Virus record (IMG/VR): IMGVR_UViG_3300029448_000003
Location: 32,001-96,000 of that record
Reading direction: 5' to 3' (one strand)
Source of the DNA: a virus
DNA: 64,000 bases
Shown here: piece after piece, positions 3,809 through 24,916 of the stretch
How the letters are laid out: each line of letters opens with the position of its first letter
How positions within the stretch are numbered: position 1 is the first letter of the stretch
Translations under genes and position numbers: made by a program
Notes under the pieces: generated by a model
What the model was told of the DNA's origin: nothing
The model's database searches: none
What the model saw: only the letters and a program-made list of their open reading frames with translations

Positions 3809-3809
3809 A

Positions 3810-6569: not shown

Positions 6570-6570
6570 A

Positions 6571-7026
6571 CTAACTCCTTTTTATTTTCTTACCTTTAAA
6601 TACAATAAAGGTATCTGTTATGGGCTTACCCTTTTTCTTAATCCAAGATTGTGGTATAACTCTATCAGCATAAGGAATGCCATACTTAATACACCACTCA
6701 CCATATGTAGACTTTGCATTCTTTCGTAACTTTTTGTTACTATTTGTAAACACAAATCTTATGTCTAACTTTGGGTGTTGTTTCTTTATACACATATGTT
6801 TACGTCTATCCATTACTGTAAACAAACCTTTGGTTTCAATAATAATTCCATTATGTAGTATAAAGTCTGGGGTATAGGTGCGATAAGACAAGTCTTCCCA
6901 CTCAATTTTAATAGTTTCATATCCATATGAAATCTTTAAATCGTTTAGGTGGGATGCAACTTGGTCTTCTAAACCACTCCTATACCCATTCTTACGTGCT
7001 AAATAACGAGCACTATATCTAGACAT
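6571..7026 (-). CDS. T7 endonuclease I-like Holliday junction resolvase
   Basis: YRSGLE, YTPDF, IIIETKG, DIRFVF motifs. Confidence 0.92.
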   Translation of the reverse strand: MSRYSARYLARKNGYRSGLEDQVASHLNDLKISYGYETIKIEWEDLSYRTYTPDFILHNGIIIETKGLFTVMDRRKHMCIKKQHPKLDIRFVFTNSNKKLRKNAKSTYGEWCIKYGIPYADRVIPQSWIKKKGKPITDTFIVFKGKKIKRS

Positions 7027-7879: not shown

Positions 7880-8781
7880 TAAAATGGAATTTCATCATCT
7901 AATGTTTTGTCTACCTTAACAAAGTCTTCAACTAATTGTGAGTCCTCATTAGATAGTTCGGCAGGTTTAGCTTTATCTTTCCACGCACCAAAAACATATA
8001 TATTATAATTCTCAATCCATTGCATAAAGTCACCAAACCTTTCTTGCACTTCATCTGTTACCTCATTTACATCTTTACCCAATGTACCTGATGGTAAGTA
8101 GAACGTACCAATATTTCCTTTGCGTTCAGTAGAACCTAAAGCAATTTCATATTGGACAGGAAGATGTTTCAAACTTCCTACTTTACTAATAGGCTCACCC
8201 ATAATCTTAAAGGCATCCCTATTATCAATCTCCCAAATAAATGGAAGGTCAACTACATCCTCAAGTTCTGAACCATCTTCTCCTAAAACATTTTTAGCAG
8301 TAAGAGTACCTATAAAAACACGTACACGTTTAATACTCTTTAGTAGTTTCTTAGTACTATCAGGTAAAGCGTTATAGTCTTTAATCCAACCTGCAGGTTT
8401 ACCACAATTAAATCCACCTGCATTATCTTTAAGGTCAGTATTTAAATTGTCAGCCATTACAGTCTTAACATAGAAAGCTCTACCACTTGAGTTATCAAAC
8501 TTCTTGTACATAAATCTTTGTACGTAAGGTCTAATCGTTACCTCTTCTGAATAGAATGTAGCATCATTAGCAATGTCCTCTATTTTATAAGAGCCACCAT
8601 TTACTATGGCAGCTTGGGTTTTCTTACCCTTTACTTCTACTTCACCCATAATTGGTGAGTGTTGTAGTTTAAGTCTAGCTAATTGTAGTGTAGCTTTCTT
8701 AGTAGTTAAATCGGCATTCATACCCATAGCTTGAGCCATGCCATTAAAGTTATTTATATCAATTGTATTTACATTATTCAT
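7879..8781 (-). CDS. Putative single-stranded DNA-binding/annealing protein
   Basis: Follows the polymerase; acidic DDEIPF C-terminus typical of SSBs. Confidence 0.65.
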   Translation of the reverse strand: MNNVNTIDINNFNGMAQAMGMNADLTTKKATLQLARLKLQHSPIMGEVEVKGKKTQAAIVNGGSYKIEDIANDATFYSEEVTIRPYVQRFMYKKFDNSSGRAFYVKTVMADNLNTDLKDNAGGFNCGKPAGWIKDYNALPDSTKKLLKSIKRVRVFIGTLTAKNVLGEDGSELEDVVDLPFIWEIDNRDAFKIMGEPISKVGSLKHLPVQYEIALGSTERKGNIGTFYLPSGTLGKDVNEVTDEVQERFGDFMQWIENYNIYVFGAWKDKAKPAELSNEDSQLVEDFVKVDKTLDDEIPF

Positions 8782-8813
8782 AAATTATACTCCTTTCGTG
8801 AGTTGTTAATATA

Positions 8814-10835
8814 TTAAGCAACGTCTTTGGTGTCAAGCCAATTGTCACCAATCTTTGCTTCAAGTAATAATGGTACATTAAAACATACTTTAAAATGTTT
8901 GTCAACAAGTTTTTTTAATTTACCATTAATATTTTTAATGACCCCCAACACAACATTGATTTCAGTTGGATGTACATCAATAACAATACTATCATGTACT
9001 GTATTCACTATACATGATTGATATTGTTGTAATTCCCTATCCATTTCTAACAGAGTTATTGGTACAATATCTGCTGTAGCAAAACTTTGAACCGGGAAAT
9101 TCTTTATCTGCGTAAAATAACTAACTGTACCATTAGACCTACGTTCTACATTTGGAAATGAAAACTGTCTGCCTGATGGTGTTGTAATCTTACGTTCTTC
9201 TATAGCTTCTTTAGCCAATCTGGCATGCCAAAGTGCGATTCCTTTATACTTTTTCGTGAACTGTTTATAATACGTTGCTTCAGCAACTGACCTCCCAAAC
9301 CCCGTAGCTCCGTAGAGTGGTGCAAAGGTGTGGGCTTTAGCTTCTTGCCTACTAATCTTTTGACCACCCTCAGTAATAACTTTGGCAGTGTAGTTATGTA
9401 CGTCAAATCCATTATCTATCTCCTTCATTGCTGTTTCATCTTGTGCTAAATATGCAGCAGTTCTAAACTCTAACTGTGCAAAGTCTGCTTCTAATATCTT
9501 GCCACCTTCCCAACGTGAAATAAATACACGCTTTACAGGAAACGTACCACCTCTTGGCATGTTCTGCATGTTAGGGTCTGCTCCACTAAATCTACCTGTA
9601 GCTGTTCGATGTTGTAATAATCGTACATGTAGTTTATTATCTGATTTTATGTTGGTCTTTATCCCATCAACAAAAGACGATAGGTAACTATCCAATGCTG
9701 ACAACCTAATAACCTTAGATAAAAACTCATGTGCTTTGTCCATACCTTTTTGTTTAGCTACACTAGATAGAAAAGCAAGGTTGCTTTTGCTTGTGCTCCA
9801 CCCATGTGCTGAAATCCATTTAGAAGTAGGTGCAGTAAACTTCATACCTGCAATCTCCTTCGTAGGAATAAACAAGTATCCTTGAGCATTACAGCTAATA
9901 CACCTTGACTCTTTAGCAAAAGGAGAACCATCCTTTTTAATCTTTCGTATCTTACCACTACCATAACAAGTCTTACATTGTACGGCATTTGTTTTATATA
10001 AAACTGTAGAGTGTTCTCTGATGCTACGTTTGTATTCTGTATCTCCCATGTAAGGACTAAATATAATGGGCCATTCCTGCTTGTTCATAGGCTTACGACT
10101 ATAGATTAACCATGATAGTTGTTCAGGACTATTTAAATTAATAGGAGTGTCACCCATAAAATCTTTAACTTCCTTCTGTAAAAACTTTTCTATGTCCATC
10201 TTCTCTTGAGTAAATTCTTTTCTTACTATTTCAAGTGCATCATTATTTACTGCAAAACCACGTTGATATATATGTGCCAAACAGATAGCAACACGATTGG
10301 TTAGTAGTACACTACTGACAAGACCTCTTAGTTCTCTCTTCTTTAATCGTTCACATATCTTTGTGGCAAGTTCTTCGGTAGCATGTAGGTCACTCTTTAA
10401 ATATGAAACCAATTCATCATGTGGTATCTCATCTACACCTACTCCTTTCTTTAGATATTCTTTCATTGTGTCTTGCTTCTTAGTATTTAATTGGTATCGT
10501 TCAGCACATGCTTCCAATGAGAGAGGTTCTTTCTGTCCACATTGTAGTATGTATTCACCTAACATGGTATCAAATACATTGCCATCATATTTAAAACCAC
10601 ACTCCCATAACCACAATAAATCGTGAACAATATTGTGTCCAATCATACATGTAGTCTTATCAAGTATAGGTTGCAAGGCATCCCAGTTATCATACTCATC
10701 TGACATAATCATTGTGTTACCTTGCTCGTCAATACAACCAACCATAACAAGTTTATTTGTAGGTTCAAATGGGTCTAAGTGTAGCTTGTCATTGCGTTTA
10801 GTAACAGTATTCTCTACATCTAACACCAATCTCAT
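8814..10835 (-). CDS. polA: Family A DNA polymerase with 3'-5' exonuclease and DnaJ-like zinc-finger insert (HMO-2011 type)
   Basis: LDVE exo I, TATGRFS, DFAQLE, RQEAKAHTF..LYG, VHDS; insert CKTCYGSG...CISCNAQG. Confidence 0.95.
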   Translation of the reverse strand: MRLVLDVENTVTKRNDKLHLDPFEPTNKLVMVGCIDEQGNTMIMSDEYDNWDALQPILDKTTCMIGHNIVHDLLWLWECGFKYDGNVFDTMLGEYILQCGQKEPLSLEACAERYQLNTKKQDTMKEYLKKGVGVDEIPHDELVSYLKSDLHATEELATKICERLKKRELRGLVSSVLLTNRVAICLAHIYQRGFAVNNDALEIVRKEFTQEKMDIEKFLQKEVKDFMGDTPINLNSPEQLSWLIYSRKPMNKQEWPIIFSPYMGDTEYKRSIREHSTVLYKTNAVQCKTCYGSGKIRKIKKDGSPFAKESRCISCNAQGYLFIPTKEIAGMKFTAPTSKWISAHGWSTSKSNLAFLSSVAKQKGMDKAHEFLSKVIRLSALDSYLSSFVDGIKTNIKSDNKLHVRLLQHRTATGRFSGADPNMQNMPRGGTFPVKRVFISRWEGGKILEADFAQLEFRTAAYLAQDETAMKEIDNGFDVHNYTAKVITEGGQKISRQEAKAHTFAPLYGATGFGRSVAEATYYKQFTKKYKGIALWHARLAKEAIEERKITTPSGRQFSFPNVERRSNGTVSYFTQIKNFPVQSFATADIVPITLLEMDRELQQYQSCIVNTVHDSIVIDVHPTEINVVLGVIKNINGKLKKLVDKHFKVCFNVPLLLEAKIGDNWLDTKDVA

Positions 10836-12055
10836 ACAGTATACCTCGCTAGTCTATAGTCAAGTTCACAATGTACACTACCATGCCAACCTGATAATTT
10901 ATTTTTAACTATATTAAGATGTCTTTGTGCATCCTCTTCATCTTGTCCTTCTACTTGTGGGTTCTTTGCTATAAGAACCATTAGGTCTGCTTCAGCAGCC
11001 TTACCAGTTCTACTACCTTCCATCATACTCTGATTAAGTACCACCTTGCCCTCTGCTTCAGCACTTAACTGTGACATATATAATACTGCACATTCATATT
11101 GCTTTGCAATCTGTCTTGCATGTATAGCACAGGCTTTAAGTGCTTCGTCTGGTCTAGTAAACCCTTTGAACGTAGCAAACTTATCACCCATATCTAATAC
11201 AACAATATCAGGCTTAACAGATTTAACTGCTGACTCAACCCAATTCATGTCACTCATTGTGACATCTTTAATACGTATCTTGTCCTTAACCTTTTGATAG
11301 ATTGAGTGTGCTTTGGTTGGGTCTTGTTTTACTTGAGGTAAGGTAAGACCTGTTGCAGCTGTAAGGTAACGAGCAGCTACTCTGTGATAGCTTTCTTCAT
11401 TACATAATACAATACAGTTTGCACCTTGTTCTGCAAACCCACCCGGACCTGCTATCAATGATGCATGAAAAGATGTTTTACCTGTGTTAGGTCTAGCACC
11501 TATCTCTATTAGATGTCCTGCATTAATACCTTCTACTCGTCTACACAATGAGGGTATATTAAATGTCCACCTTGCTTCCAAATCATTCTTTGCAAGAAGA
11601 GTTTCAATTGTAATATCATCCCATTCAATATTCATGTTGGGAGTAAAGTCATCTGCATATTGCTCCAAGAGATTACGCAAAGGCTCAAGTGAACTCTTTG
11701 CACCATTAACATAATCAAACCCTAAGTTTGCTATGTCTTCTCCAATAACTTGTTGGAATAACTTTGACAACACTTCTTGTGCTACATCACTACCCATAGG
11801 TTTCTCTTTCTTTATTTGCATAAAGAGAGAACCATATGCATTCTTCTGTGCCGTACTCATTGAGGGATTACTTGCTATAAATAATGCTTCAACCTCATCA
11901 GGCGATACAGTACGGCTATATCTATCCATCGCCTTATCTAATGTTTGTTTTATCTTTTGTACATCCTTACTAAATAATCTGTTAGGACATCTTGAACCTC
12001 TATGCTCATCATAGAATGATTTGTCCATAAGACTTCTTACTAATGATAGTTCCAT
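10832..12055 (-). CDS. Replicative SF4 (DnaB/T7 gp4-like) helicase
   Basis: Walker A GARPNTGKT, VVLD, SQLS, KNK...G. Confidence 0.9.
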   Translation of the reverse strand: MELSLVRSLMDKSFYDEHRGSRCPNRLFSKDVQKIKQTLDKAMDRYSRTVSPDEVEALFIASNPSMSTAQKNAYGSLFMQIKKEKPMGSDVAQEVLSKLFQQVIGEDIANLGFDYVNGAKSSLEPLRNLLEQYADDFTPNMNIEWDDITIETLLAKNDLEARWTFNIPSLCRRVEGINAGHLIEIGARPNTGKTSFHASLIAGPGGFAEQGANCIVLCNEESYHRVAARYLTAATGLTLPQVKQDPTKAHSIYQKVKDKIRIKDVTMSDMNWVESAVKSVKPDIVVLDMGDKFATFKGFTRPDEALKACAIHARQIAKQYECAVLYMSQLSAEAEGKVVLNQSMMEGSRTGKAAEADLMVLIAKNPQVEGQDEEDAQRHLNIVKNKLSGWHGSVHCELDYRLARYTV

Positions 12056-12831
12056 ACCATCTCCTTTAAGTTGTTAATATCGGTTTCTTTTCTATACTTT
12101 AAGTCATCAGTTATACGCAAAACTTTTACTTTGTCAACCCATCCTCTTAATTCTTTTGCAATTTGCAAATTCTTTTTAAGAGCATCGGGGTCAAGTGCCA
12201 CGATAACTTTTTTATAATGACTTAAAAAATCTTTGTGTTCGTGTAGTAGGCTTGTACCCAATAGGGCTACACCTGCCATACCATACTCTGAAACAACACA
12301 TGCACTTATACAATCTTCTACTACAACACATGTATCATTACGTTCATTCGTTAGGGAATTGTAAACTCCTGATACAAAAGGTACTTTACTTTTACCATAA
12401 CGTTTCCATTTAGGAAGTCTGCTTCCTATGCTTCTACCAACGGCATCTATTACCATGCCCTCGTCATTAAATATTTTAAAGACTGCTCTATTTTCCCGGA
12501 CATCATGCATACAATAGTTTTCATATATATATTTATATTCATTATTATGTAACACACCATGTTTAAAATCCACAATGTATTCAGGAAAACTAAATGTCGT
12601 TCCTTCGACTTGCCTTTTATTAAATGCAGAACGTATCTGTTCTATTGACATGTTCACTTTAACTGAACCACCTACAGAACAACCAGCTTTGTAACAGTTG
12701 TACAATACTTGTCCCATATTTGTGGACACAGTAAATGTATGCTTACCACCACATGATGGACAGTCCATACGTTTTGTGCTGTCATAAGATAGCTCGTCTG
12801 CAATTTCGTTTACATATTTCTGTATATCCAT
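12040..12831 (-). CDS. DNA primase (zinc finger + TOPRIM)
   Basis: CPSC...CYKAGC; VVVED, ALLGT, ALDPDA. Confidence 0.9.
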   Translation of the reverse strand: MDIQKYVNEIADELSYDSTKRMDCPSCGGKHTFTVSTNMGQVLYNCYKAGCSVGGSVKVNMSIEQIRSAFNKRQVEGTTFSFPEYIVDFKHGVLHNNEYKYIYENYCMHDVRENRAVFKIFNDEGMVIDAVGRSIGSRLPKWKRYGKSKVPFVSGVYNSLTNERNDTCVVVEDCISACVVSEYGMAGVALLGTSLLHEHKDFLSHYKKVIVALDPDALKKNLQIAKELRGWVDKVKVLRITDDLKYRKETDINNLKEMVWNYH

Positions 12832-12852
12832 GTTTCACACCTTATCATATTT

Positions 12853-13212
12853 TTAGGAATAAAGCAAGTACCTTACTTTTAAAGTACTCCTAATTCCAGT
12901 GCATTCATTTATAATTCTACGACAAACTTTAGAAAATCTGTACTTGGAGTAGGGAATGTATGTGCCTTTATGTGGTCTTATTTGTGGTGCAATATACTCT
13001 TGGAATCCAAAGTCTTTCTTCTGTTTATCTAACAGAATCAATATGTTATTGTCCCAAGTTAAGTCAACATCACACCACTTCAATAAAAAGATTTCTTTAT
13101 ATTGTTGCCGCAATTCATAGGCAAGTTGAATTATTATTCCTATGTTCCTATATTCAAATTTACTGTATGAGTGTGACAAAAATGCAACGATTTCTTTTTT
13201 GTTCCACTTCAT
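12853..13212 (-). CDS. Degenerate tyrosine integrase remnant (open ORF, catalytic elements missing)
   Basis: W...EI.AFL...Y..F.YRNIG.II.LAYE, LKW.DVD and Q..DFGFQEY.AP resemble HMO-2011-type integrase; syntenic position before primase. Confidence 0.6.
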   Translation of the reverse strand: MKWNKKEIVAFLSHSYSKFEYRNIGIIIQLAYELRQQYKEIFLLKWCDVDLTWDNNILILLDKQKKDFGFQEYIAPQIRPHKGTYIPYSKYRFSKVCRRIINECTGIRSTLKVRYLLYS

Positions 13213-13487
13213 CTTTTTCTCCTCTTCATTGGTTTAAAGTTACCCTCTTGCCAATCAACTCTCATACTCTGCCACTTCTCATTAGTCCAATGAGGTAGCA
13301 GATTAAAGTTTGCAATAGACATTTTATGTACATCTCTGTACACATTACCTGCTTCACGTATCCAAACCCATTTACGTTTGGTTAGTACCCAAGTCTTTCT
13401 GTATCCACTACGTGGAAGTTTGCCTTGCCAATACACTTCATATAGCTCGGCATCCTGCCACCTCTTTGCCTTTGGTTTAGTCCACAT
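13209..13487 (-). CDS. Hypothetical early protein (Trp/Arg rich)
   Basis: Translationally coupled ORF. Confidence 0.7.
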   Translation of the reverse strand: MWTKPKAKRWQDAELYEVYWQGKLPRSGYRKTWVLTKRKWVWIREAGNVYRDVHKMSIANFNLLPHWTNEKWQSMRVDWQEGNFKPMKRRKR

Positions 13488-13765
13488 TAAAAATGTCCCA
13501 TGTCATTTTTCCAAGCAAGTTCGTCTGACTCTAGTACATAAGCATCATACCACTTAGACCCATGTCCATCATCACTCTTTTGTGGTACAAACTTTAGTGA
13601 GCTATGTAGATGACACAATAGTTCATCTAACATGGACACTTCTGACAGTCGTATATCATGGCATTCTGACACGTACTCTAGTGCTTCCTTCAATTTGTTG
13701 TGTAGTGTGAGGAACTTTAATCTTTGTTCCCCTGTAATTAATATATCTTCATTTACTTCTGGCAT
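13487..13765 (-). CDS. Hypothetical early protein
   Basis: Coupled ORF with AGGAG RBS. Confidence 0.7.
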   Translation of the reverse strand: MPEVNEDILITGEQRLKFLTLHNKLKEALEYVSECHDIRLSEVSMLDELLCHLHSSLKFVPQKSDDGHGSKWYDAYVLESDELAWKNDMGHF

Positions 13766-14027
13766 AATCGTACTCCTTTATGTAGTTAAATGTTATGTTT
13801 GCACTAGGATATTGTGACTGTGTAAAGTCCAGTGCATAGTTAATAGGGTCAACTTCAACACCATGTTTTTTGAGATGCTCATTTAGAAATCGCATCCTTG
13901 TAGGCTGCCCATCTACGGACATACCTACTTCATACTCAAACATTGTGCTGTCAGTAACTTCAATAGACTTTACTCTTGGTTCATTCTTACCTTTAGTAGT
14001 CCACGTTTCATAAAATTCATTTCTCAT
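13749..14027 (-). CDS. Hypothetical early protein
   Basis: Coupled ORF (TAATG overlap). Confidence 0.7.
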   Translation of the reverse strand: MRNEFYETWTTKGKNEPRVKSIEVTDSTMFEYEVGMSVDGQPTRMRFLNEHLKKHGVEVDPINYALDFTQSQYPSANITFNYIKEYDYARSK

Positions 14028-14431
14028 TATGCACTCTCCATTTCTATAAATTCTGTTAAGGGTTTTGTGTAGTCCCTTTCAAAGCCTACACCTGCGACTT
14101 TCCACTTACTGTGGTAAGAGGGTAATACATTTTTTGTATTGAACGTAAACAGTTCCACTACATCATTAACAGATGTAGACCTATGCTTACCCACTCTAAT
14201 ACCTATAATCTTTTTAGGGTCATAGTTACTCCCCCAGTATTGGCTTATCGTGTTTGTAGTTTTATAAACATCTTCAAGTATCTCATGCACTACAGACAGA
14301 TTATTAATTGTAGGATACCTAAGTGCTCGTGGCACTCTAATGGTTGCTACCCAATAGTATCGTAGGTTATTAGCTTCAGCAAACATATCAACTGCGTGAT
14401 ACACTCTTGCTTCATAAAAAATAGTTGTCAT
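14027..14431 (-). CDS. Hypothetical early protein
   Basis: GAGGAG RBS; RSTSVNDVV motif. Confidence 0.7.
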   Translation of the reverse strand: MTTIFYEARVYHAVDMFAEANNLRYYWVATIRVPRALRYPTINNLSVVHEILEDVYKTTNTISQYWGSNYDPKKIIGIRVGKHRSTSVNDVVELFTFNTKNVLPSYHSKWKVAGVGFERDYTKPLTEFIEMESA

Positions 14432-14435
14432 ATTG

Positions 14436-14588
14436 TTACTCCTCTAGTTGTTCATTGTATAAGTAAAGACCAAAATCATAGCCTTGTTTGTATGCATCAG
14501 ATAATTTACCATTTTTTCTTTTACCTTTTAGTAAACCATCTGTAACCCCATCTTTAAAATCTTGTAGGTTTATTACTGTATCATTCAT
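14436..14588 (-). CDS. Small hypothetical protein, 50 aa (not in ORF track)
   Basis: MNDTVINLQDFKDGVTDGLLKG...AYKQGYDFGLYLYNEQLEE; fills the gap, GAGGAG RBS. Confidence 0.7.
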   Translation of the reverse strand: MNDTVINLQDFKDGVTDGLLKGKRKNGKLSDAYKQGYDFGLYLYNEQLEE

Positions 14589-14802
14589 TGTTTATTAACT
14601 CCTCTGCCGTTTGTAATAAAACTTCTCTAAATGCACCATCTATTGTTGGGTTCTCTTCAGGATAGTGTTTTAAATTGTATAGGTACATATTTGTAACTCT
14701 TTCTATAAAATCAGATAATTTTAATTCATTTATGTCGTAAATATATCCATAAGGTTTGTTACTAATCATAATTAATATCCCATCTGTAAAATATGTGGTC
14801 AT
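14581..14802 (-). CDS. Hypothetical protein (start may be an internal Met)
   Basis: In-operon ORF. Confidence 0.6.
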   Translation of the reverse strand: MTTYFTDGILIMISNKPYGYIYDINELKLSDFIERVTNMYLYNLKHYPEENPTIDGAFREVLLQTAEELINNE

Positions 14803-15193
14803 CTATTCTTGCTATGTATGTCTTGGTGCTTGCCCAAGATGGTGTAACATAGTATGCATGGTAGTGTGTAGCACCCTCAACAAAGTCATCAAGGTTGCCA
14901 TGATATACTCCATGTGCCACGAGCATTGACTGCTCCCATGCATCCATATCTCTAGGTGCATCACTCTTGCCATCACAGTACCAGCTAAACTGACATCTGT
15001 TTTTAACAGGGTAGTCAGGCTTCCAACTGTAGGTAGGTCCTTGCTCCACCACTTCACATACTGTGTTAGGGTATCGCTCATCATACACTCTGTTCATCAC
15101 GACCTGTGCTACTGCTACCTGCCCTATTAAGGATTGGTTCTTAGCTTCGTGATACACATTGAGTGCTAAACATAATAATGTTTCAGCTATCAT
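14762..15193 (-). CDS. SleB-like cell wall hydrolase (Hydrolase_2)
   Basis: CLALNVYHEA, VAQVVMNRV, CQFSWYCDG, GATHYHA...P.W, HIFY. Confidence 0.9.
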   Translation of the reverse strand: MIAETLLCLALNVYHEAKNQSLIGQVAVAQVVMNRVYDERYPNTVCEVVEQGPTYSWKPDYPVKNRCQFSWYCDGKSDAPRDMDAWEQSMLVAHGVYHGNLDDFVEGATHYHAYYVTPSWASTKTYIARIDDHIFYRWDINYD

Positions 15194-15213
15194 ATTCTTC
15201 TCCTTTCGTTATG

Positions 15214-15630
15214 TTATATATAAACTCTTGGGTGTGGTTCGGATTCACTATTATGGACAAGTTCCATAACAATATTACCCATCCAACTAGGGTCTAAGTC
15301 TTTCCATCTGTTAAGATGTCTGTTATTTACTTTAAAATAATCATCTTCATATGGGTTATATCTAACCCTATTCCAACCAAAGTTTTCTATAGGTGGGTAT
15401 GAGATAAACGGAGATGCCAACATACCTACTGCAAATGCATGTACATTTTTCTTTCCTTGTTCTCGCACTCTCTTCTGTCCACCCTTTCGCACCACAAACT
15501 TTGCTTCAGACAGAACAACATGGTTGTCATGCCCAATAACTTTATTTGTTTTAGTGCTTTGAATACTCCAAAGTTTTTTGTGTAAGTTCCAGTATACACG
15601 AACTCTAAGTGTAAGATATTTCATATCCAT
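15214..15630 (-). CDS. Conserved hypothetical phage protein
   Basis: VYWNLHK..WS, RVR..GKKNVHAF, V.YNPY motifs. Confidence 0.75.
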   Translation of the reverse strand: MDMKYLTLRVRVYWNLHKKLWSIQSTKTNKVIGHDNHVVLSEAKFVVRKGGQKRVREQGKKNVHAFAVGMLASPFISYPPIENFGWNRVRYNPYEDDYFKVNNRHLNRWKDLDPSWMGNIVMELVHNSESEPHPRVYI

Positions 15631-15632
15631 AA

Positions 15633-16805
15633 TTATTTTACTCCTTCAAATATGTGGGCAATCACATCTACTGTCCACCCATTGCCTAACATCTTATAAC
15701 GTTGGGTGTTGGAGATGGTATCCCACTCTTGTTTTTTATCATTATATTTTCCAAACTGTGTGTAATTATCAGGCACAGTTTGTAGTCTTTCACACTCCAA
15801 TGGTGTTAGCTTTCTATATAATTCTTTCTGTACTACAACATTGTCCTTGTGGACAGTTGTCAAACAGTTTGACTTATCGCTATCACTTACTTCTAACTGT
15901 CGTGTAAATGGTAGTTCAAGTTGGTCATCCTTTCGTACTCCATTCTTATCAAGCCTACGATTAACAAGCCTACCAATGGCTACCTTTGGTTGTCTATGCC
16001 CACCCTGCATAGTCGTGAGTGTAGGACTCTTCCCATTAGGTGAGTATACTCGCTTGATAATGTCGTACCCCTTGATGTTGGTAGCATTACCTACTTGTAT
16101 GGGTTTCTTTACATAGGTAGGTATCTGTCCTTTGTACATAGATGCAGTAAGACAGTTAGCCTTTGGGTCATCAACAGACTTTACCATATCACCTCTACGT
16201 CTACCACACCATTCATTCTCAAGATAGTTTGGTATCTTGTGGAAAGGTAGGTTTTCAAGTATGTCACTAATAACAATGCCCTTGTCCTCTATCTGTGGTA
16301 TAGGTATCTGCTCGTACTCCTTTGATTCATTTAAGAATCCAAACCAATATAGCCTATGTCTATTCTGTGCTGATGCATCAGCAGAGTTAATCATCTGTGG
16401 TTCAAAGCCAATGAACTCTGATATAACATCTTGAGATTCTTTTTTCATGCGAACATTCTCCAAGAGAATATACTTTGGTTGTAGCATATCTCGTATACGT
16501 ATGAACTCAAAGAATAGTTTACTGCGTGGGTCATCAAAGTTTAACTGTTTGCCTGCAAAACTAAAACCTTGACATGGCGAACCACCCATAAGCAAGTCAC
16601 ACTCTATATCCCATTTACTTGCCGTACTAGAAGTAAACTTTGTAACGTCACCTAGTTGTACTGTGTTTGGATAGTTTTTCTGTGCCACTTGCATTGGATA
16701 GTTTTCTATCTCGCAAGCATAATAATTCCTATAGTCAATGCCCACTCTATTGAGTGCAATCTGACCACAAGACATACCATCAAATAAACTGACTACATCT
16801 TTCAT
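15633..16805 (-). CDS. C5 cytosine DNA methyltransferase
   Basis: SLFDG, GSPCQGFS, ENV, QNR.R, LTPLECERLQ, Y..LGNG. Confidence 0.93.
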   Translation of the reverse strand: MKDVVSLFDGMSCGQIALNRVGIDYRNYYACEIENYPMQVAQKNYPNTVQLGDVTKFTSSTASKWDIECDLLMGGSPCQGFSFAGKQLNFDDPRSKLFFEFIRIRDMLQPKYILLENVRMKKESQDVISEFIGFEPQMINSADASAQNRHRLYWFGFLNESKEYEQIPIPQIEDKGIVISDILENLPFHKIPNYLENEWCGRRRGDMVKSVDDPKANCLTASMYKGQIPTYVKKPIQVGNATNIKGYDIIKRVYSPNGKSPTLTTMQGGHRQPKVAIGRLVNRRLDKNGVRKDDQLELPFTRQLEVSDSDKSNCLTTVHKDNVVVQKELYRKLTPLECERLQTVPDNYTQFGKYNDKKQEWDTISNTQRYKMLGNGWTVDVIAHIFEGVK

Positions 16806-17369
16806 TTACTTCTCCTCTATGTAAACACGTAAGTGTGTTGACTGTTGTATGTTCTGCCCATGTGCCGTAGCACCAGTGCCTTTGTACTCGTCTTTAACAT
16901 GCTGACCTAACACCCTCATTTTGTATCTGCTTCTGTTGAAATATTTTCTTGCATCATCAACAAACCTTTGACCATCACAGTCATTAGGTATCTCGCTGAA
17001 TACATAACGTGGTGCTGTCACTTCTCTGTAAGACTTTTCCTCAAGCCTTTTGTGTAAGTCTTGATTACGTTCTTTGAGATTTTCATATACATCTATACTA
17101 ACAGAGTTGTTACAATGCTTTTTATACTGTTCAATTTCTTGGGTTAACTCAGCTACCTTACCCTCTTGTGTATCTCTTCGCACCTCTTCATTTAGTTGTG
17201 TGTTGTATTTTATAAATGCTCTGACAAAATGTACAAAGTCCATGTCCTCTAATGCATAATCCTTTTCTTGTGACTTGGATTCATAAAGAATATTATCTAA
17301 TTCTTTTATGTCTGATGGTACAAAACCATCAACTGTTTCAAGTATTTTTACTATCTGTTTTATCTTCAT
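16806..17369 (-). CDS. Hypothetical protein with central coiled coil
   Basis: 187 aa in-operon ORF. Confidence 0.75.
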   Translation of the reverse strand: MKIKQIVKILETVDGFVPSDIKELDNILYESKSQEKDYALEDMDFVHFVRAFIKYNTQLNEEVRRDTQEGKVAELTQEIEQYKKHCNNSVSIDVYENLKERNQDLHKRLEEKSYREVTAPRYVFSEIPNDCDGQRFVDDARKYFNRSRYKMRVLGQHVKDEYKGTGATAHGQNIQQSTHLRVYIEEK

Positions 17370-17524
17370 TGCATTTCTCCTATAATATTATTGTAATAAT
17401 ATGATACGTCATCATAACTTTCATCTTCAGATGCACCAGCACAATCCAAACACACTATACCCTCGTCAGTTTCGTGGCTAACCCAATCATTTTTAGTGGG
17501 TTCATTACATATAATACAATGCAT
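17366..17524 (-). CDS. Small zinc-ribbon protein
   Basis: CIIC...CLDC; start MHCIIC after GAGGAG RBS. Confidence 0.65.
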   Translation of the reverse strand: MHCIICNEPTKNDWVSHETDEGIVCLDCAGASEDESYDDVSYYYNNIIGEMQ

Positions 17525-17525
17525 A

Positions 17526-17675
17526 TTATGCACTCCTCTTTTTGTTGTTGTGTAATTGTTTAAGCAAATCATTTACAAACCATAGCTTTGTATTGTCTAC
17601 ATTTTTTCTTTGGTTACGTCTTTCCATTTGCCTTATAGTTTTATCAGCTTTCAGCTTTCTCTTCTCTTTCGACAT
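17526..17675 (-). CDS. Small basic protein, 49 aa (not in ORF track)
   Basis: MSKEKRKLKADKTIRQMERRNQRK...; fills the operon gap. Confidence 0.55.
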   Translation of the reverse strand: MSKEKRKLKADKTIRQMERRNQRKNVDNTKLWFVNDLLKQLHNNKKRSA

Positions 17676-17781
17676 CTTTCTTTTCCTTTTTTCTATTATA
17701 TTTTTTCTTGTCCTTCACAACCCTATGCTTGTACTGCTCAAGTTGCAGAGATTTAGCAATAGGGTTGCGAGGTTTTTGCAT
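17644..17781 (-). CDS. Small basic protein, ArfA-like, 45 aa (not in ORF track)
   Basis: NPIAKSL...YKHRVVKDKKKYNRK resembles the ArfA pattern N.I..LL...F.QRV.K.KK...Y.RK. Confidence 0.5.
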   Translation of the reverse strand: MQKPRNPIAKSLQLEQYKHRVVKDKKKYNRKKEKKDVEREEKAES

Positions 17782-17786
17782 GACAC

Positions 17787-18008
17787 CTAGCCTGCAAAGT
17801 GCCTTAACTTTGGGTTGGACACCTTTCTTTCAAAGGCTACAGTAAATTTCCCAAAGTGAAATTGTCTAAAGGTGTCACCTACATTGGTAGTAAACCAACC
17901 CCTAGATGTATGTTTACGTTTACGAGCAAAACCTTTTTGCCCTAATAAGTTAAAACGAAAACCTTTAGTGCCATCATTCAATGACTTTGTTGCTAAAATT
18001 AAAAACAT
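17787..18008 (-). CDS. Small basic hypothetical protein
   Basis: AAGGA RBS, 73 aa. Confidence 0.7.
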   Translation of the reverse strand: MFLILATKSLNDGTKGFRFNLLGQKGFARKRKHTSRGWFTTNVGDTFRQFHFGKFTVAFERKVSNPKLRHFAG

Positions 18009-18027
18009 AATGTTTTTCCTTTCTATA

Positions 18028-18050
18028 AGTGTCCTATATGGGACAGTTTA
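18028..18050. repeat. 23-bp palindromic repeat AGTGTCCTATATGGGACAGTTTA, copy 1
   Basis: Exact match to 19238..19260; variants at 20284..20305 (inverted) and 20860..20880. Confidence 0.95.
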
Positions 18051-18296
18051 TTGTGTAACATTATTGTTACTCAATTTCTTTTTCAGTAACTTCATTGCAG
18101 TTACTAATAGTTTGTGACTATCTTCTCCACCATATCCACCATAGCTTGTGTTACCATGCCATATGTAATGTGTTGTTTCATCACCCCAATGCTCATAATT
18201 ACCTATGTAACCCTTAGAATACTCGTCACCTAGTAATTCCATTACTATTTCAAGTGCTTGTTTGTTTGTATCTTCCACAATAAAACGTTTCAGCAT
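18048..18296 (-). CDS. Hypothetical early protein (cassette gene 1)
   Basis: AAGGA RBS; stop codon is the end of the 23-bp repeat. Confidence 0.7.
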   Translation of the reverse strand: MLKRFIVEDTNKQALEIVMELLGDEYSKGYIGNYEHWGDETTHYIWHGNTSYGGYGGEDSHKLLVTAMKLLKKKLSNNNVTQ

Positions 18297-18315
18297 TTTG
18301 TTTTCCTTTCTGTTA

Positions 18316-18362
18316 ATAGTTATATGTTACTTTTATATACATTTCAAGTAACATCTAACTAT
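18316..18362 (-). promoter_or_regulatory. Promoter-containing stem-loop 1 (TTGAAA-17-TATAAC)
   Basis: 17-bp arms with 1 mismatch around a 13-nt loop; core ACTTTTATATACATTTCAAGT identical at 19600..19620. Confidence 0.75.
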
Positions 18363-18371
18363 ATTTTATTT

Positions 18372-19043
18372 TTAGTGTTGCAAATATGCAACATCTTTTA
18401 CGTTACTATCCCAACACATACGGCAATCAAGGCACTTGTTGCCTTGCTTTGAGCTAGGACACATTTTGTCTACAACTAAATCCTCGCTAGTCACGACTGT
18501 ACTACTGTGCTTGTGGAACTTATGTGGTAAACCATTAATCATGGTTGCACTAATTCTAACCACAAGATTGCTAGGAAAATCCCCAAACAATTTCTTGTAC
18601 TCTTGCACTATGCTCACCTCTCGTGTGGGCAGCCAATGCCTAACACTAGGTGTATGTTTAGCAATCGTAACAATCATAGTTAAGTGTTCAATGCTTTGCA
18701 AGTCACCACTATCGTGCCACCTAAAGACCTTAGTCTTTGCACAATAGTGCAAGATAAGAAATACCATAGCATCAACCCATTTAGGGTTGTTCATTAGCTT
18801 GTCCATTCTCCTATCCAATGCTTCTTGTACATTGGGGAATGTGTACCTACCTTTGAGTGCATAGCAATCAGCACAAGTAGACATCAAAACTTTACGAAGT
18901 TTACTGCCTACTTTGCATTTAAATGCACTCAATGAATAGCCAAAAGATGGCATCTTAGATGGCTTGGATAAGCCACCTACCTCACTCCATGCTTCTTTAA
19001 CTGTGTTAAACATTATACTTACTCTCCAAAAGTTTCGTTCCAT
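18372..19043 (-). CDS. Gp88-like protein (radical-SAM-related Cys-rich phage family)
   Basis: GLSKPSKMP, C..CYA.KG.Y, FRWHDSGD, HWLPTRE, C..CR.CW. Confidence 0.75.
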   Translation of the reverse strand: MERNFWRVSIMFNTVKEAWSEVGGLSKPSKMPSFGYSLSAFKCKVGSKLRKVLMSTCADCYALKGRYTFPNVQEALDRRMDKLMNNPKWVDAMVFLILHYCAKTKVFRWHDSGDLQSIEHLTMIVTIAKHTPSVRHWLPTREVSIVQEYKKLFGDFPSNLVVRISATMINGLPHKFHKHSSTVVTSEDLVVDKMCPSSKQGNKCLDCRMCWDSNVKDVAYLQH

Positions 19044-19213
19044 TCGTGTGCAGGAATGCCACTCTTAATGAACTCACGTTCATCCTCCGACAAGTTCGGC
19101 ATAGCATTCTGTATGAGTTCTCCCCCATACCACGCATCAATCTGTGATTGAGTAACGTCAATATCCATTGTGTTTGTTTCACCACTAAATGGTGATGTCT
19201 TTGTTATTATCAT
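19019..19213 (-). CDS. Conserved small phage protein
   Basis: LIQNAMPNLS.DEREFI.SGI motif; AGGAG RBS. Confidence 0.75.
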   Translation of the reverse strand: MIITKTSPFSGETNTMDIDVTQSQIDAWYGGELIQNAMPNLSEDEREFIKSGIPAHEWNETFGE

Positions 19214-19237
19214 ATTTAACTCCTTTAGTTAAATGTT

Positions 19238-19260
19238 AGTGTCCTATATGGGACAGTTTA
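19238..19260. repeat. 23-bp palindromic repeat, copy 2
   Basis: Identical to 18028..18050. Confidence 0.95.
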
Positions 19261-19566
19261 AGTTAGCTTTATTAATAAGAGTGCTAACTCTTCAGTTGGT
19301 AGGTATCCCTTTACCCCACCTTCAAAAGTGCCATCATCTACATAGTTATAATCACTATCTAGAATTGCGACCTCTACTCGTTCTGCGTAGTCACCATACC
19401 TACCACCTATACTATCATAAGGTGCATTCTTATCGTTCTGAACGATAGATATGTAACGATTACCTTTAATAGGTAATACGATTTGATTTGCAGTTTCATC
19501 TCCAAAGTTTTTCTGAAACTTTTTGTTAATTAAATCAGCGAAAGTATAATCCATTTTCATTTTCAA
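19258..19566 (-). CDS. Hypothetical early protein (cassette gene 2)
   Basis: AGGAG RBS; stop codon is the end of the 23-bp repeat. Confidence 0.7.
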   Translation of the reverse strand: MKMKMDYTFADLINKKFQKNFGDETANQIVLPIKGNRYISIVQNDKNAPYDSIGGRYGDYAERVEVAILDSDYNYVDDGTFEGGVKGYLPTEELALLLIKLT

Positions 19567-19576
19567 ACTCCTTATA

Positions 19577-19640
19577 AGTTACATATAAATAAATAAAACA
19601 CTTTTATATACATTTCAAGTGTTTTATTTATTATGTAACT
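19577..19640 (-). promoter_or_regulatory. Stem-loop 2 with the same 13-nt loop (TTGAAA -35 element, weak -10)
   Basis: 24-bp arms with a 3-nt bulge; loop identical to stem-loop 1 while outer stem sequence differs. Confidence 0.7.
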
Positions 19641-19642
19641 AA

Positions 19643-19831
19643 TTACTTCTTACACAACGGAATGGCAAGAACACAAACCATACCAAACACTATTAACATA
19701 GTGCCAATTATGGTCAATATCATAGGCTGTACGTTTACATTCCATGCTACATCTATGGATAAACATACAAGTGAAATAGTACCAAGTACTATTGTAAAAT
19801 TACAGATAAAGTTATGTATAATGTTATACAT
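19643..19831 (-). CDS. Small two-TM membrane protein
   Basis: Two hydrophobic segments. Confidence 0.6.
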   Translation of the reverse strand: MYNIIHNFICNFTIVLGTISLVCLSIDVAWNVNVQPMILTIIGTMLIVFGMVCVLAIPLCKK

Positions 19832-20112
19832 TATAAAGTCTCCAAAAAGTTTGTAAGAATGTTAATACATTCTTCTGTTTCAGTTGGTTGTGTAAACAAC
19901 CCTTTGCTCCCATGACTATACAAAGCCATAGGCTTCATGTCAACGTTCATCTCTTCCTTCTCATATTCCGAAGGAAAGCTAGATGTTACACTAGATGGGT
20001 AATCTAGATTAAAGTTACGATTGCCCTTCTTGGAACAAGAAGTCTTACCCCATCTACGATTGTAAAACAATCTAGGGTCAGGTGGACACTTAGTTACAGA
20101 TACATGAGTCAT
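19831..20112 (-). CDS. Hypothetical early protein
   Basis: AAGGAG RBS. Confidence 0.65.
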   Translation of the reverse strand: MTHVSVTKCPPDPRLFYNRRWGKTSCSKKGNRNFNLDYPSSVTSSFPSEYEKEEMNVDMKPMALYSHGSKGLFTQPTETEECINILTNFLETL

Positions 20113-20139
20113 ATAAAATCTCCTTTTGAGAAAGTAGCG

Positions 20140-20772
20140 TTAAGCTACTTCCTCAGATGTTAACATTTTGATTTGCTCTATAAGAGCATTGATAAGTTCC
20201 TTGTGAGGAACTTGGTGAGTATCAGCTTGAACTAGCATTTCCAATGCTATGTCATCTGCTGATAGTTTCTTCTTAGAAACTTGAAACTGTCCAATATGGG
20301 ACACTTCAGATGATTTATCATCTGTTGTTTCAGTTGTTTTAGATGCTTTAGCATCTGTCTTAGGCTTGTCAGCTTTAGCTGATTCCGTGTCTACTTGCTC
20401 TTGGCTTGGCAAGGTATCTTTGTAATGTTTTCTCATTGCATTTTGCAATGAACCAATATTAGTTCCTTTGAAACCAACCTTCTTAATGAAGGTAGACACA
20501 GTTTCACTGTGTTCAATAAGCCATTCAGATTCAGACGTTCTACGTCTGTCAATAGGTGGAAAGTTGTATTTATCCTTTATCGTTTTACTTAAAACGGATA
20601 CATTTTCAACAGCCTTAATCTGTTTGATTAAGTTTCCAATTCTGTAGTCCAATCCACCATCCTTAATGGATTTAGCAAAACTTCTTTGTTCTGTTTTGAC
20701 GGCTTTCGTCAGAGCTTGTCCTTCATTCTGAAGGGAAGAGATTTGTGATTTGTTGTTTTCGATTTTTGTCAT
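20140..20772 (-). CDS. First gene of the early arm, hypothetical
   Basis: 210 aa, GGAG RBS; contains an inverted copy of the palindromic repeat. Confidence 0.75.
   Translation of the reverse strand: MTKIENNKSQISSLQNEGQALTKAVKTEQRSFAKSIKDGGLDYRIGNLIKQIKAVENVSVLSKTIKDKYNFPPIDRRRTSESEWLIEHSETVSTFIKKVGFKGTNIGSLQNAMRKHYKDTLPSQEQVDTESAKADKPKTDAKASKTTETTDDKSSEVSHIGQFQVSKKKLSADDIALEMLVQADTHQVPHKELINALIEQIKMLTSEEVA
20284..20305. repeat. Palindromic repeat variant, inverted, intragenic
   Basis: Reverse complement AGTGTCCCATATTGGACAGTTT. Confidence 0.85.
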
Positions 20773-20859
20773 GTTAATTACTCCATATATTTTTAAACAC
20801 TTCTCATAAACATTCGAAGTGCTTTAAAAATATTGGAGTTATAATGCTGTTGGTTTTTG

Positions 20860-20880
20860 GTGTCCCATATCGGACAGTTT
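20860..20880. repeat. Palindromic repeat variant upstream of the first early gene
   Basis: GTGTCCCATATCGGACAGTTT. Confidence 0.85.
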
Positions 20881-20919
20881 TGTACTCCAACGTAGTTGGG
20901 AACGTCATTTCCTCATAAT

Positions 20920-21290
20920 CATCACTATGTGATGGCATAGGTGACGGCAACTGTGCTTCTTTGCGTGTGTCCGGGCATAATGCCTGCCCAAGCGAGAGGG
21001 TAGGGCGAGGGACACCCCCCTGTGGGGGGGTATTGTGTATGAATATATACACAGATTAGGAATAAGGTTGGTAACCACTTACAGAATAAGCGTATACTGT
21101 TGCAAAAGTATCACACCTTTGTACATATTTTTACACAAAGGGGGTTGACATAAATATAAAAGTTTGGTATAATTACTACATTAAAGTGTTACACTAAATA
21201 AATAAAGAAACAGTTAGAAGTGTAACATATAAGAAGTATTAGATTTTCTTTTTAACTCATTAATATGATACTTCTGTACTAAAATAATTC
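20920..21290. other. Divergence region between the two arms; probable genome terminus/control region
   Basis: Locally GC-rich, ACCCCCC-TGT-GGGGGGGT hairpin, further inverted repeats, strand switch. Confidence 0.55.
21145..21173 (+). promoter_or_regulatory. Consensus sigma70 promoter
   Basis: TTGACA-17 bp-TATAAT perfect match, facing the structural arm. Confidence 0.85.
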
Positions 21291-21506
21291 TTGACAATGA
21301 CTAAAAAATCCGTAAAACTAAACTATGACGATAATATTCTTCATAAAACTTATAACTCTGTGCTAAAACATGGAGACCTACGTGCTGTACATATACCACA
21401 TTCATCTGTACATTACATTAGAGCACTCATAGAACGTGATACAGGAGTGCGTTATTCTCTATCTCATGTAGAGAATGCCATGAAAGCCGAAGGCTGGACA
21501 GAATAA
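21291..21506 (+). CDS. Small conserved phage protein
   Basis: HIPHSSVHYIRA.IE..TG..YSL.HVE; first ORF of the plus arm; true start probably downstream of the TTG. Confidence 0.65.
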   Translation: MTMTKKSVKLNYDDNILHKTYNSVLKHGDLRAVHIPHSSVHYIRALIERDTGVRYSLSHVENAMKAEGWTE

Positions 21507-23669: not shown

Positions 23670-23879
23670 ATGTGGATTCCAGTAATAACAATACTATGGG
23701 CATTAGGTGAAAATGCTACGTGGGTAAATTTTCCAATGGTAAATTTTCCATTTACAACACAAGATAGATGTCAAGAATATGTAGCAAGGGTTAGAAGTAG
23801 TATAACTAAAGACCCTCAATATTTAGAAGGGTATAGTGTATGTGTAGAGATACCTAGTAAAAAAGGAGAAGCAACATGA
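23670..23879 (+). CDS. Small exported two-Cys protein
   Basis: Hydrophobic N-terminus, F...DRC...VCVE. Confidence 0.65.
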   Translation: MWIPVITILWALGENATWVNFPMVNFPFTTQDRCQEYVARVRSSITKDPQYLEGYSVCVEIPSKKGEAT

Positions 23880-24916
23880 ATAAAATGATTTATACATTTA
23901 GTATATTTTTAACTTTAGTAGGCACTATATCTAGTGCTGTCGCAAGAGAACAAATAAGGATAGTCGGTTCTAGTACTGTTTATCCATTTTCAACAATCGT
24001 TGCAGAGAAATTTGCACAACAAGGAAATCCAGCTCCTATTGTAGAATCAACAGGTTCAGGTGGTGGAATGAAATTATTTTGTGCTGGTGTAGGTTTAGAA
24101 CATCCAGATATTACAAACGCATCAAGAGCAATTAAAGATAAAGAAGCTACAACTTGTAAGAAAAATGGTGTTGCATTTACAGAGTTTGTTGTAGGTAATG
24201 ATGGACTTGCATTTGCAAATTCAAACGAAGGACAAAAATTTAGTATTTCTATTGCACATATAGCAGCGGCACTTGCAAAAGAACTCCCTAAAGATGGGTC
24301 TATGCAAGATAATTTTTTGATGACTTGGGATGAAGTAGATGCTTATGTGCATAAACAAATGGGTCATCCGATTTTAAATTTACCAAATCAAAAGATTGCA
24401 ATTATGATACCACCACCAACCTCTGGAACAAGAGATGCAATGGGTTCTTTGTTTATGAAGAATGGTTGGAAGAAACTAGGGTTATATTCTGGTGACACGA
24501 AAGGTGGATATAAAGTATTAAGAGAAGATGGTGTTGCAATAGAGATGGGCGAAAACGATAATTTAATAGTAGAAAAATTAGTTGCAGATTCAAATTTATT
24601 TGGTGTTTTTGGTTATTCCTTTTTTGACCAAAATAGAGATAAAGTCCAATCCTCTATAATTGATAATATAGAATTAACTTTTGATAATATTGCATCATAT
24701 CAATATCCGGGTGCTAGACCATTATTCTTTTATGTAAAGAATGACCATATTTATGCAATACCAAACATGTTAAGTTATGTTGAAGAATTTGTGTCAGAGA
24801 GGGCTATGAGTATTAATGGATATTTATTTCCAGCAGGGCTTGTGCCTTTATCAAATGATGACTATGCAAAACAAGTTGATGCATTATCAACATTAAAGGA
24901 AAACAAACATGATTAA
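23876..24916 (+). CDS. pstS: Phosphate ABC transporter substrate-binding protein
   Basis: Signal peptide; IRIVGSSTVYPF, ESTGSGGG, NASR, PPTSGTRD, FGYSF, YPGARPLFFYVK. Confidence 0.93.
   Translation: MNKMIYTFSIFLTLVGTISSAVAREQIRIVGSSTVYPFSTIVAEKFAQQGNPAPIVESTGSGGGMKLFCAGVGLEHPDITNASRAIKDKEATTCKKNGVAFTEFVVGNDGLAFANSNEGQKFSISIAHIAAALAKELPKDGSMQDNFLMTWDEVDAYVHKQMGHPILNLPNQKIAIMIPPPTSGTRDAMGSLFMKNGWKKLGLYSGDTKGGYKVLREDGVAIEMGENDNLIVEKLVADSNLFGVFGYSFFDQNRDKVQSSIIDNIELTFDNIASYQYPGARPLFFYVKNDHIYAIPNMLSYVEEFVSERAMSINGYLFPAGLVPLSNDDYAKQVDALSTLKENKHD

Follow-up and report, generated by a model that had tools for sequence, protein, structure and literature searches.

The 64,000-nucleotide stretch analysed here (the window) comprises positions 32,001 to 96,000 of the IMG/VR virus record IMGVR_UViG_3300029448_000003 and carries two kinds of repeated element, a short palindrome and an AT-rich hairpin, in the early arm of a phage. 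The complete record is 110,914 bp long and consists of two related phages of about 55 kb each, joined in tandem: phage A (record positions 1-56833) and phage B (56834-110914), with a mutual identity of about 75%. They meet near window position 24834, inside a conserved gene, and an open reading frame (ORF) at 23876..24916 spans the joint. The two-phage record is probably an assembly chimera, despite its 100% complete rating. The repeats under study sit within the early arm of phage A, which is present in marine metagenomes from 10 studies among the public runs. Because its DNA polymerase (8814..10835, minus strand) shares 62% identity with the enzymes of Roseobacter phage CRP-345, Puniceispirillum phage HMO-2011 and CRP-1, phage A belongs to the HMO-2011 type, as a first-pass annotation made from the letters of the window had correctly stated. 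The genes from 2582 to 20772 lie on the minus strand and those from 21297 on lie on the plus strand; the region of about 20780-21300 is therefore a divergent control region. The first early gene on the minus-strand side, gp01 (20140..20772), encodes a protein of 210 amino acids (aa).

An identical 23-bp palindromic sequence is found at 18028-18050 and 19238-19260, and its last three bases (18048-18050 and 19258-19260) are the TAA stop codons of the minus-strand genes 18048..18296 and 19258..19566, which encode 82 and 102 amino acids. This pair had been noticed in the first-pass annotation and is real, including the overlap with both stop codons, but the count of two was too low. The core TGTCCNATATNGGACA, which follows the pattern TGTCC-N6-GGACA in this phage, has four copies in the window, and the same four in the whole record, where 0.2 would be expected. 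All are listed on the minus strand. Copy 1 (18028..18050, core 18030-18045) includes the stop codon of the 82-aa gene and precedes by 21 nt the ATG of a 73-aa gene (17787..18008). Copy 2 (19238..19260, core 19240-19255) likewise includes the stop codon of the 102-aa gene and precedes the Shine-Dalgarno (SD) sequence and ATG of a 64-aa gene (19019..19213). Copy 3 (20284..20306, core 20288-20303), with inverted flanks, lies within gp01, where it is read as the peptide EVSHIGQF in a disordered linker, and copy 4 (20858..20880, core 20861-20876) lies in the gp01 leader, upstream of the gp01 promoter hairpin. A strain variant in one marine metagenome (run X8) has G>C at 18040, at the edge of the centre of copy 1, and leaves the arms intact.

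The second element is a long hairpin. A 21-bp core is exactly identical at 18329-18349 and 19600-19620 (0.02 expected) and lies upstream of both the 82-aa and the 102-aa gene, as had been pointed out earlier. It represents the 13-nt loop and the top 4 bp of two hairpins, the lower stems of which differ yet stay complementary. Hairpin 1 (18316..18362, minus strand) has a 17-bp stem and a 13-nt loop and is located upstream of the 82-aa gene; its minus strand reads TTGAAA-N17-TATAAC, followed by the SD sequence and ATG of that gene. Hairpin 2 (19578..19639, minus strand), upstream of the 102-aa gene, shares the loop and the top 4 bp and has another stem. The two long stem-loops originally described are thus real, but they are too few, as a third with a related loop (GAATGTTTATGA) occupies 20782..20837 (minus strand), between palindrome copy 4 and gp01. 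This hairpin 3 is probably the first early promoter. RNA folding gave -14.5 and -20.6 kcal/mol for hairpins 1 and 2 (z -4.8 and -6.7) and a z of -4.9 for hairpin 3; the hairpins are not followed by a U-run.

A search of IMG/VR for the exact palindrome yielded 25 single matches, which equals the chance expectation, and a search for the hairpin core yielded 2 matches, both unrelated. Relatives were fetched from IMG/VR by way of the GP88-like protein, a 187-aa protein and a gp01 alignment. Each of them has its own version of the palindrome, repeated across the early arm, and one palindrome family is found in about 76 of 80 gp01-bearing loci, with 3-9 copies per locus. Most variants read GTCCAA-YR-TTGGAC, some GTCCGA-YR-TCGGAC or TTCCGA-N3-TCGGAA, and the family is also present in the cultured phages HMO-2011, CRP-345 and CRP-1. 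In five whole genomes the palindromes are confined to the early arm, and a reversed-pattern control gave 0 matches. The positions are stereotyped: about 300 nt before gp01 (90 nt here), inside gp01 and right after gp01. The remaining copies lie just 5' of the ribosome-binding sites of later early genes. An SD sequence and start codon follow in 139 of 326 unique copies, with a median of 20 nt (interquartile range 19-22) from palindrome end to start. Perfect 6+6 arms occur in 284 of 302 unique copies, and the central two bases vary (TG 173, CA 54, CG 41).

The usual unit in the relatives is hairpin, 27 nt, palindrome, 20 nt, ATG. Judged by this order, the palindrome belongs with the gene that lies downstream of it, and the unit that the first-pass annotation had drawn, in which a hairpin, a gene and a closing palindrome go together, has to be abandoned. 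Among the 34 hairpins for which the following element was scored, 20 are succeeded by a palindrome (median 27 nt) and 12, including hairpins 1 and 2, directly by an SD sequence and ATG. In about 25 of 30 unique hairpins across the phage group the order TTGAnn-N16/17-TATAAC is found, then an SD sequence and ATG directly or past a palindrome. The constant letters, TTGAnn at the edge of stem and loop and TATAAC 16-17 nt further, have sigma70 geometry, which suggests that the hairpins may act as sigma70-like promoters. The top ACTT/AAGT is invariant in all 30. Positions 5-13 of the stem form a pair in 97-100% of the hairpins, each with 2-4 types of pair, and 81% of positions are paired overall, compared to 54% after swapping arms between hairpins. 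In the closest relative of phage A, L047, the orthologue of hairpin 1 has a different but compensated stem.

Within a genome the palindrome is mostly of one type, and between genomes it changes in a concerted way. In L088 and L096, which share 84% DNA identity, the same symmetric base pair differs in all orthologous copies. The presence of one site variant per genome, together with this concerted difference, requires a trans-acting factor or strong gene conversion. The form GTCCAA/TTGGAC is retained exactly in phages of which the gp01 proteins are only 25-30% identical and the hosts differ (SAR116, Roseobacter RCA). Mixed palindrome types occur in L103, L086 and L078. The early region of L103 displays three states in one phage (GTCC..GGAC, GTCC..GGTC and GACC..GGTC), which looks like a half-finished compensatory change or a mix of imported modules. 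In L033 the palindrome centre measures 3 or 4 nt within one genome.

A predicted gp01 structure (predicted local distance difference test score 81) shows an all-helical N-domain, the disordered linker that contains the internal palindrome, and a two-helix C-domain. One helix, KKGFTSL[T/S]ALQ, has Thr in phages with GTCCAA sites and Ser in phages with GTCCGA or TTCCGA sites, an association that holds for 75 of 76 unique sequences. On a gp01 tree built without the columns of this Thr/Ser helix the site type switches about nine times, and the four independent pairs on supported branches all agree (sign test p 0.125). Since the Thr/Ser of gp01 switches with the A/G of the palindrome, the palindrome would be an operator read by gp01. 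The position of copy 4, upstream of the gp01 promoter hairpin, means that this copy is probably untranscribed and thus favours recognition as DNA. A conserved 69-aa protein encoded on the other side of the control region, p69, was considered as a specificity partner and rejected, as it does not change with site type; a fold search with p69 was uninformative (best Z 2.9). For gp01, Foldseek gave no match, a profile search of PDB sequences gave none, and a Pfam search with 35 family members returned only noise and no family match.

The uniformity of the sites could also arise without a trans-acting factor, if the palindromes were structural hairpins or cruciforms, in DNA or RNA, that gene conversion keeps alike, or if they were sites for a host protein. 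Whole modules evolve in concert, including spacers that are unlikely to be contacted by a protein, and the mixed types of L103, L086 and L078 would suit such an explanation too. It does not account for the retention of GTCCAA/TTGGAC across distant gp01 proteins and different hosts, for the covariation of palindrome and gp01, or for phage B, which has neither gp01 nor palindromes. We regard an origin of this kind as very unlikely.

A different possibility is that the palindrome functions in the 5' untranslated region of the messenger as an RNA hairpin, which would have a 5-bp stem and a loop of 4-6 nt and lie 20 nt ahead of the start codon. It could then be a translational operator, bound by gp01 or by a host factor in the manner of RegA or a coat protein, or else a processing or stabilising signal by which each ribosome-binding site is insulated. 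The tightly fixed distance to the start codon, the asymmetric flanks that are kept in sense orientation, the compensatory arm changes in single copies of L103 and the variable length of the centre are all consistent with a role in RNA. A feature search also produced a cluster of T4 RegA-type translational repressors with a score of 0.90, which is a lead only. A metatranscriptome contig (run X20) spans 17788-18039, which covers exactly the 73-aa gene and stops at the centre of palindrome copy 1; this is a weak indication, since contigs cannot fix RNA ends and palindromes can break assemblies. The predicted RNA fold, on the other hand, is weak (-5.8 kcal/mol, z about -2), and conservation is as high at the two innermost symmetric positions, which cannot pair with just 2 nt between them, as in the remainder of the arms. 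Copy 4 is situated 5' of the hairpin with the putative first early promoter, copies with inverted flanks occur inside coding regions, and structure alone leaves unexplained why all copies in a genome have the same sequence. An RNA hairpin as the functional form is possible, though we hold it to be unlikely. Action of the palindrome as an intrinsic terminator was rejected, as the sense strand lacks a U-run and a terminator scan flagged the antisense strand only.

The two elements are also places where gene content changes. Among related phages with at least 80% identity, 261 de-duplicated indels and replacements were collected. Homology mostly ends 10-39 nt past the palindrome centre and resumes either directly ahead of the palindrome or about 95 nt ahead of it, where the promoter hairpin begins. 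Breakpoints within 30 nt of a palindrome make up 30% on the left and 19% on the right, compared to 7% of random positions. Of the gene starts that bear a module, 77 of 108 fall at a breakpoint, and of the module-less starts 198 of 383 do (odds ratio 2.3, p 3e-4, with crude start calls and a p value that ignores relatedness); this test supersedes an earlier junction control with crude ORF calls, in which the enrichment was about 1.5-fold. CRP-345 and CRP-1 share 90-97% identity across the module surrounding copy 2, whereas the gene that follows has been replaced, and in L078 a gene was imported together with a foreign-type palindrome and foreign flanks.

In phage A the clearest case is the 102-aa ORFan (19258..19566, minus strand; likely ATG at 19560), which is missing in L047. 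There, hairpin 2 runs directly into the palindrome, and the 316-bp insert of phage A sits exactly between hairpin 2 and palindrome copy 2, flanked by the 7-bp direct repeat TAAGTTA at 19259..19265 and 19575..19581. Hairpin 2 is 98.6% identical to its counterpart in L047, whereas the flanking DNA is about 75% identical, and the gene upstream of hairpin 2 has been replaced in L047. The 82-aa ORFan (18048..18296, minus strand), between hairpin 1 and palindrome copy 1, is in the same place in L047 with 72% amino acid identity and is also present in L035; the set of this gene, hairpin 1 and copy 1 is kept in L047 and partly in L035. The expectation that gene content changes exactly at the motifs therefore holds for the 102-aa gene, while the supposed 82-aa cassette is fixed in L047. 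The repeat spacings of 1210 and 1271 bp given earlier are correct. The excisions of 1210 and 1271 bp derived from them were not borne out, as no corresponding deletion or circle joint is present in the contigs assembled from three runs of DNA and one of RNA; the only joint listed in public contigs, with a 21-nt side, comes from something else, and none lies at the motifs. As far as these alignments go, gene content changes at the motifs through events at module edges and at microhomologies, and not through the predicted excisions.

These findings bear on the proposal of the first-pass annotation that the locus is a modular capture and shuffling system. In its strong form the palindromes, the hairpin cores or both would be recombination sites, and cassette exchange, through mini-circles as for the promoter early stem-loops (PeSL) of T4-like phages or in an integron-like manner, would be their primary function. 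The clustering of breakpoints at module edges, the exact placement of the 102-aa insertion and the 98.6%-identical island of hairpin 2 between unrelated flanks would agree with such a system, as would the gene of L078 that came with its foreign-type palindrome. Within genomes, moreover, flanks, spacer and SD sequence are homogenised, and central bases are flipped between constant flanks. Yet no recombinase accompanies the motifs: an integrase as partner was rejected because the early and replication genes of phage A yielded none, and the integrase is optional among relatives (PMC9038755). Furthermore, the 102-aa insert is bounded by 7-bp microhomology and not by two motif copies, the first three copy positions are fixed throughout the group, which fits regulation better than mobility, module-less junctions also vary, and deletion or circle joints were absent from the assembled contigs of the three DNA runs. 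Shuffling as the primary function is, in our judgement, quite unlikely. What survives of the proposal is the enrichment of breakpoints at module edges and the 102-aa insertion; the conservation of the 82-aa gene and the variability of module-less starts speak against the remainder. Phage B was considered as a positional control for the cassettes and found unsuitable, as its early arm differs and lacks gp01.

A more active involvement of gp01 can also be imagined, in which the protein pairs identical sites, in one genome or in co-infecting relatives, and in this way promotes module exchange beyond a role as repressor. If so, the early arm would be a protein-guided gene-cassette array for which no integrase is needed, and the flipped centres, homogenised modules and imported gene-plus-palindrome units would be footprints of the guided exchange. 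We consider this improbable.

In view of the above, we favour the reading, with a probability of roughly 0.55, that the two motifs constitute the standard two-part expression module before the early genes of HMO-2011-type phages, with the palindrome as the gp01 operator and gene exchange as a by-product. The first part would be the AT-rich hairpin, which carries a putative sigma70-type promoter with CTTGAnn at the 5' edge of an 11-13-nt loop and TATAAC 16-17 nt on, at the foot of the 3' arm. Its stem is maintained by compensatory changes, and the hairpin might additionally end or stabilise the upstream transcript. The second part, the palindrome (GTCC-N6-GGAC; here TGTCC-yATATr-GGACA), would be a dispersed operator, placed upstream of the first early promoter, inside gp01 and, for the other copies, about 20 nt 5' of start codons, either about 27 nt past a hairpin promoter or straight after the preceding stop codon. 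As the first protein made, gp01 most probably binds the palindrome as a dimer and as DNA, and it would throttle or shut off its own gene and the other early genes, either as a roadblock or as a feedback repressor. That the palindrome is found throughout the group, is conserved in sequence and covaries with a phage protein argues for a role in regulation, as an operator, and against a site dedicated to recombination. Because modules are near-identical over 45-110 nt within one genome, they would be preferred for insertion, loss and exchange of early genes, and this exchange would be a PeSL-like by-product of repeats, not the work of a dedicated recombination machine. The 102-aa gene would then be an insertion that split a hairpin-palindrome module and the 82-aa gene an older, conserved resident.

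Several observations weigh against this interpretation. The usual final T is missing from TATAAC, and the hairpins were not among the sites called by a consensus promoter scan. Few independent switches underlie the covariation, and four pairs cannot reach significance; linkage could contribute to it as well, because the Thr/Ser residue is about 35 codons from the internal palindrome. Structure comparison of gp01 gave weak matches, with Z 4.7 for the KorB DNA-binding domain, Z 4.4 for Spo0J and Z 4.8 for TetR; for helical proteins such scores are within noise, and they serve as leads at most. The start-codon distance, the compensatory changes in L103 and the variable centre in L033 suit an RNA hairpin equally well or better, and module-less gene starts are breakpoints too, in 52% of cases.

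Among the systems described in other phages and mobile elements, a close analogue is found in T4-like phages with their PeSL cassettes (Arbiol et al. 2010, PMC2839356; Comeau et al. 2014, PMC4122927). These cassettes share with the present modules the combination of a stem-loop, a sigma70-like early promoter, an SD sequence and a start codon, located between genes in a hyperplastic early region. They are likewise conserved within a genome while differing between phage lineages, and they lie beside insertions, deletions and replacements of ORFans. The analogy drawn in the first-pass annotation is sound insofar as promoter-like stem-loops stand at the edges of variable genes, and it fails in their architecture: in PeSL the stem-loop is upstream of the promoter, whereas here the promoter is enclosed, with the -35 element at the loop edge and the -10 element at the foot of the 3' arm. 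The modules also have a second element, the 14-16-bp palindrome between promoter and SD sequence, which also occurs without a promoter, and they belong to an unrelated phage group of the 55-kb podovirus type. Mini-circle formation by PeSL was shown experimentally (PMC2839356, PMC4122927); for the modules described here it would be a prediction.

Dispersed operators offer a second comparison. The stoperators of cluster A mycobacteriophages are asymmetric, orientation-dependent 13-bp sites, present in 20-30 copies in both genome arms and bound by the lysogeny repressor (gp71 in phage L5). As in the present case, one short site is present in many copies that are dispersed over transcription units, in their short intergenic spaces, and the site is proposed to block transcription running through it. 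Stoperators also change in step with their phage protein from lineage to lineage, to which the association of gp01 with its candidate site (75 of 76 sequences, four supported pairs, p 0.125) may be a parallel. The differences are that the sites of the HMO-2011-type phages number 3-9, are restricted to the early arm, stand at a fixed 20 nt from start codons and occur in phages with and without integrase. They are also palindromic, so that the asymmetry typical of stoperators was not found, the perfect 6+6 palindrome being present in 284 of 302 copies. The KorB-OB and ParB-parS systems of IncP plasmids and chromosomes do have palindromic sites, of 13-16 bp, which are situated near or far from promoters and inside genes. 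The protein that binds them is helical, forms a dimer and has an arginine-rich patch; gp01 as the candidate binder can be likened to it, and the KorB DNA-binding domain and Spo0J ranked near the top of its weak structural matches. Against a closer relationship, the gp01 matches of Z 4.4-4.7 are within noise and a significant match to the ParB N-terminal or KorB family was not obtained. Integron attC arrays resemble the locus in that an ORF is followed by an imperfect palindrome and that promoterless genes are arrayed and read from an upstream promoter. They differ in that an IntI-type integrase is found neither beside the array nor among the early or replication genes of phage A, in that the sites measure 14-23 bp with simple 5-6-bp arms and not 57-141 bp with R''-L''/L'-R' architecture, and in that the palindrome is here coupled to a downstream ribosome-binding site.

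Copies of the palindrome were also encountered in unusual places. A small basic ORF (MRYEMQNFIKF...DDWKRERK) contains an in-frame copy that is read as SNVGQ, with frame and peptide as in the internal copy of gp01; it is located at 2082-2231 in L045, at about 2228 in L046, and in L054, L068 and L113. In L095 the palindrome separates two ORFs, rather than lying in the small basic ORF. In CRP-345, CRP-1 and a number of uncultured relatives, the gene for the tyrosine integrase contains a palindrome with a GG centre (L045:7079-7092, L046:6868-6881). Phage B, which is without gp01, p69 and the palindromes, has three GAAC-N7-GAAC boxes before its early genes (record positions 109876-109986), and these resemble the alphaproteobacterial SOS box. 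The motif GGAGGAGTAC is found in phage B and, ahead of the leader palindrome, in both phage A and the relatives of phage A.

The surroundings of the modules contain few recognisable genes. Comparison of ten local genes with Pfam and PHROGs gave only the GP88 family and two PHROGs without known function, a nucleotide search against cultured phages gave the methylase gene as sole match, and Rfam and tRNA scans gave no matches. The GP88-family gene (PF17338; 18372..19043, minus strand) has palindromes on both sides in L035 and L033. The p69 gene (21297..21506, plus strand) encodes a small conserved protein with a weak winged-helix match. Its product is 45-79% identical among relatives; all related loci have the gene, and in each of them it points away from gp01. 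It is preceded by a perfect TTGACA-17-TATAAT with an upstream TG at 21145-21173 (plus strand), found by the consensus promoter scan. A G+C-rich hairpin of the form C6-N-G6 stands at 21014-21031, amid an otherwise A+T-rich control region, and comparable hairpins of a C-run and a G-run occur 5' of the leader palindrome in L113, L118, L033 and L034.

Phages of the HMO-2011 type are among the most abundant marine viruses, and to our knowledge nothing is known of the timing of their gene expression. A description of these motifs was not found in the searchable literature, as the first-pass annotation had supposed, and promoters, palindromes and intergenic elements go unmentioned in the main comparative paper on the group (PMC9038755). 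If the proposed two-part module is correct, it would supply test material in cultured HMO-2011, CRP-1 and CRP-345 in the form of a candidate regulator and its binding site. It would allow transcription starts to be predicted, and the coupling of Thr/Ser in gp01 with A/G in the palindrome would be a natural specificity switch. The modules would also explain the mosaicism of the ORFan-rich early arm, and they are sequence landmarks by which early genes and the boundaries of cassettes can be annotated in metagenomic contigs by the thousands.

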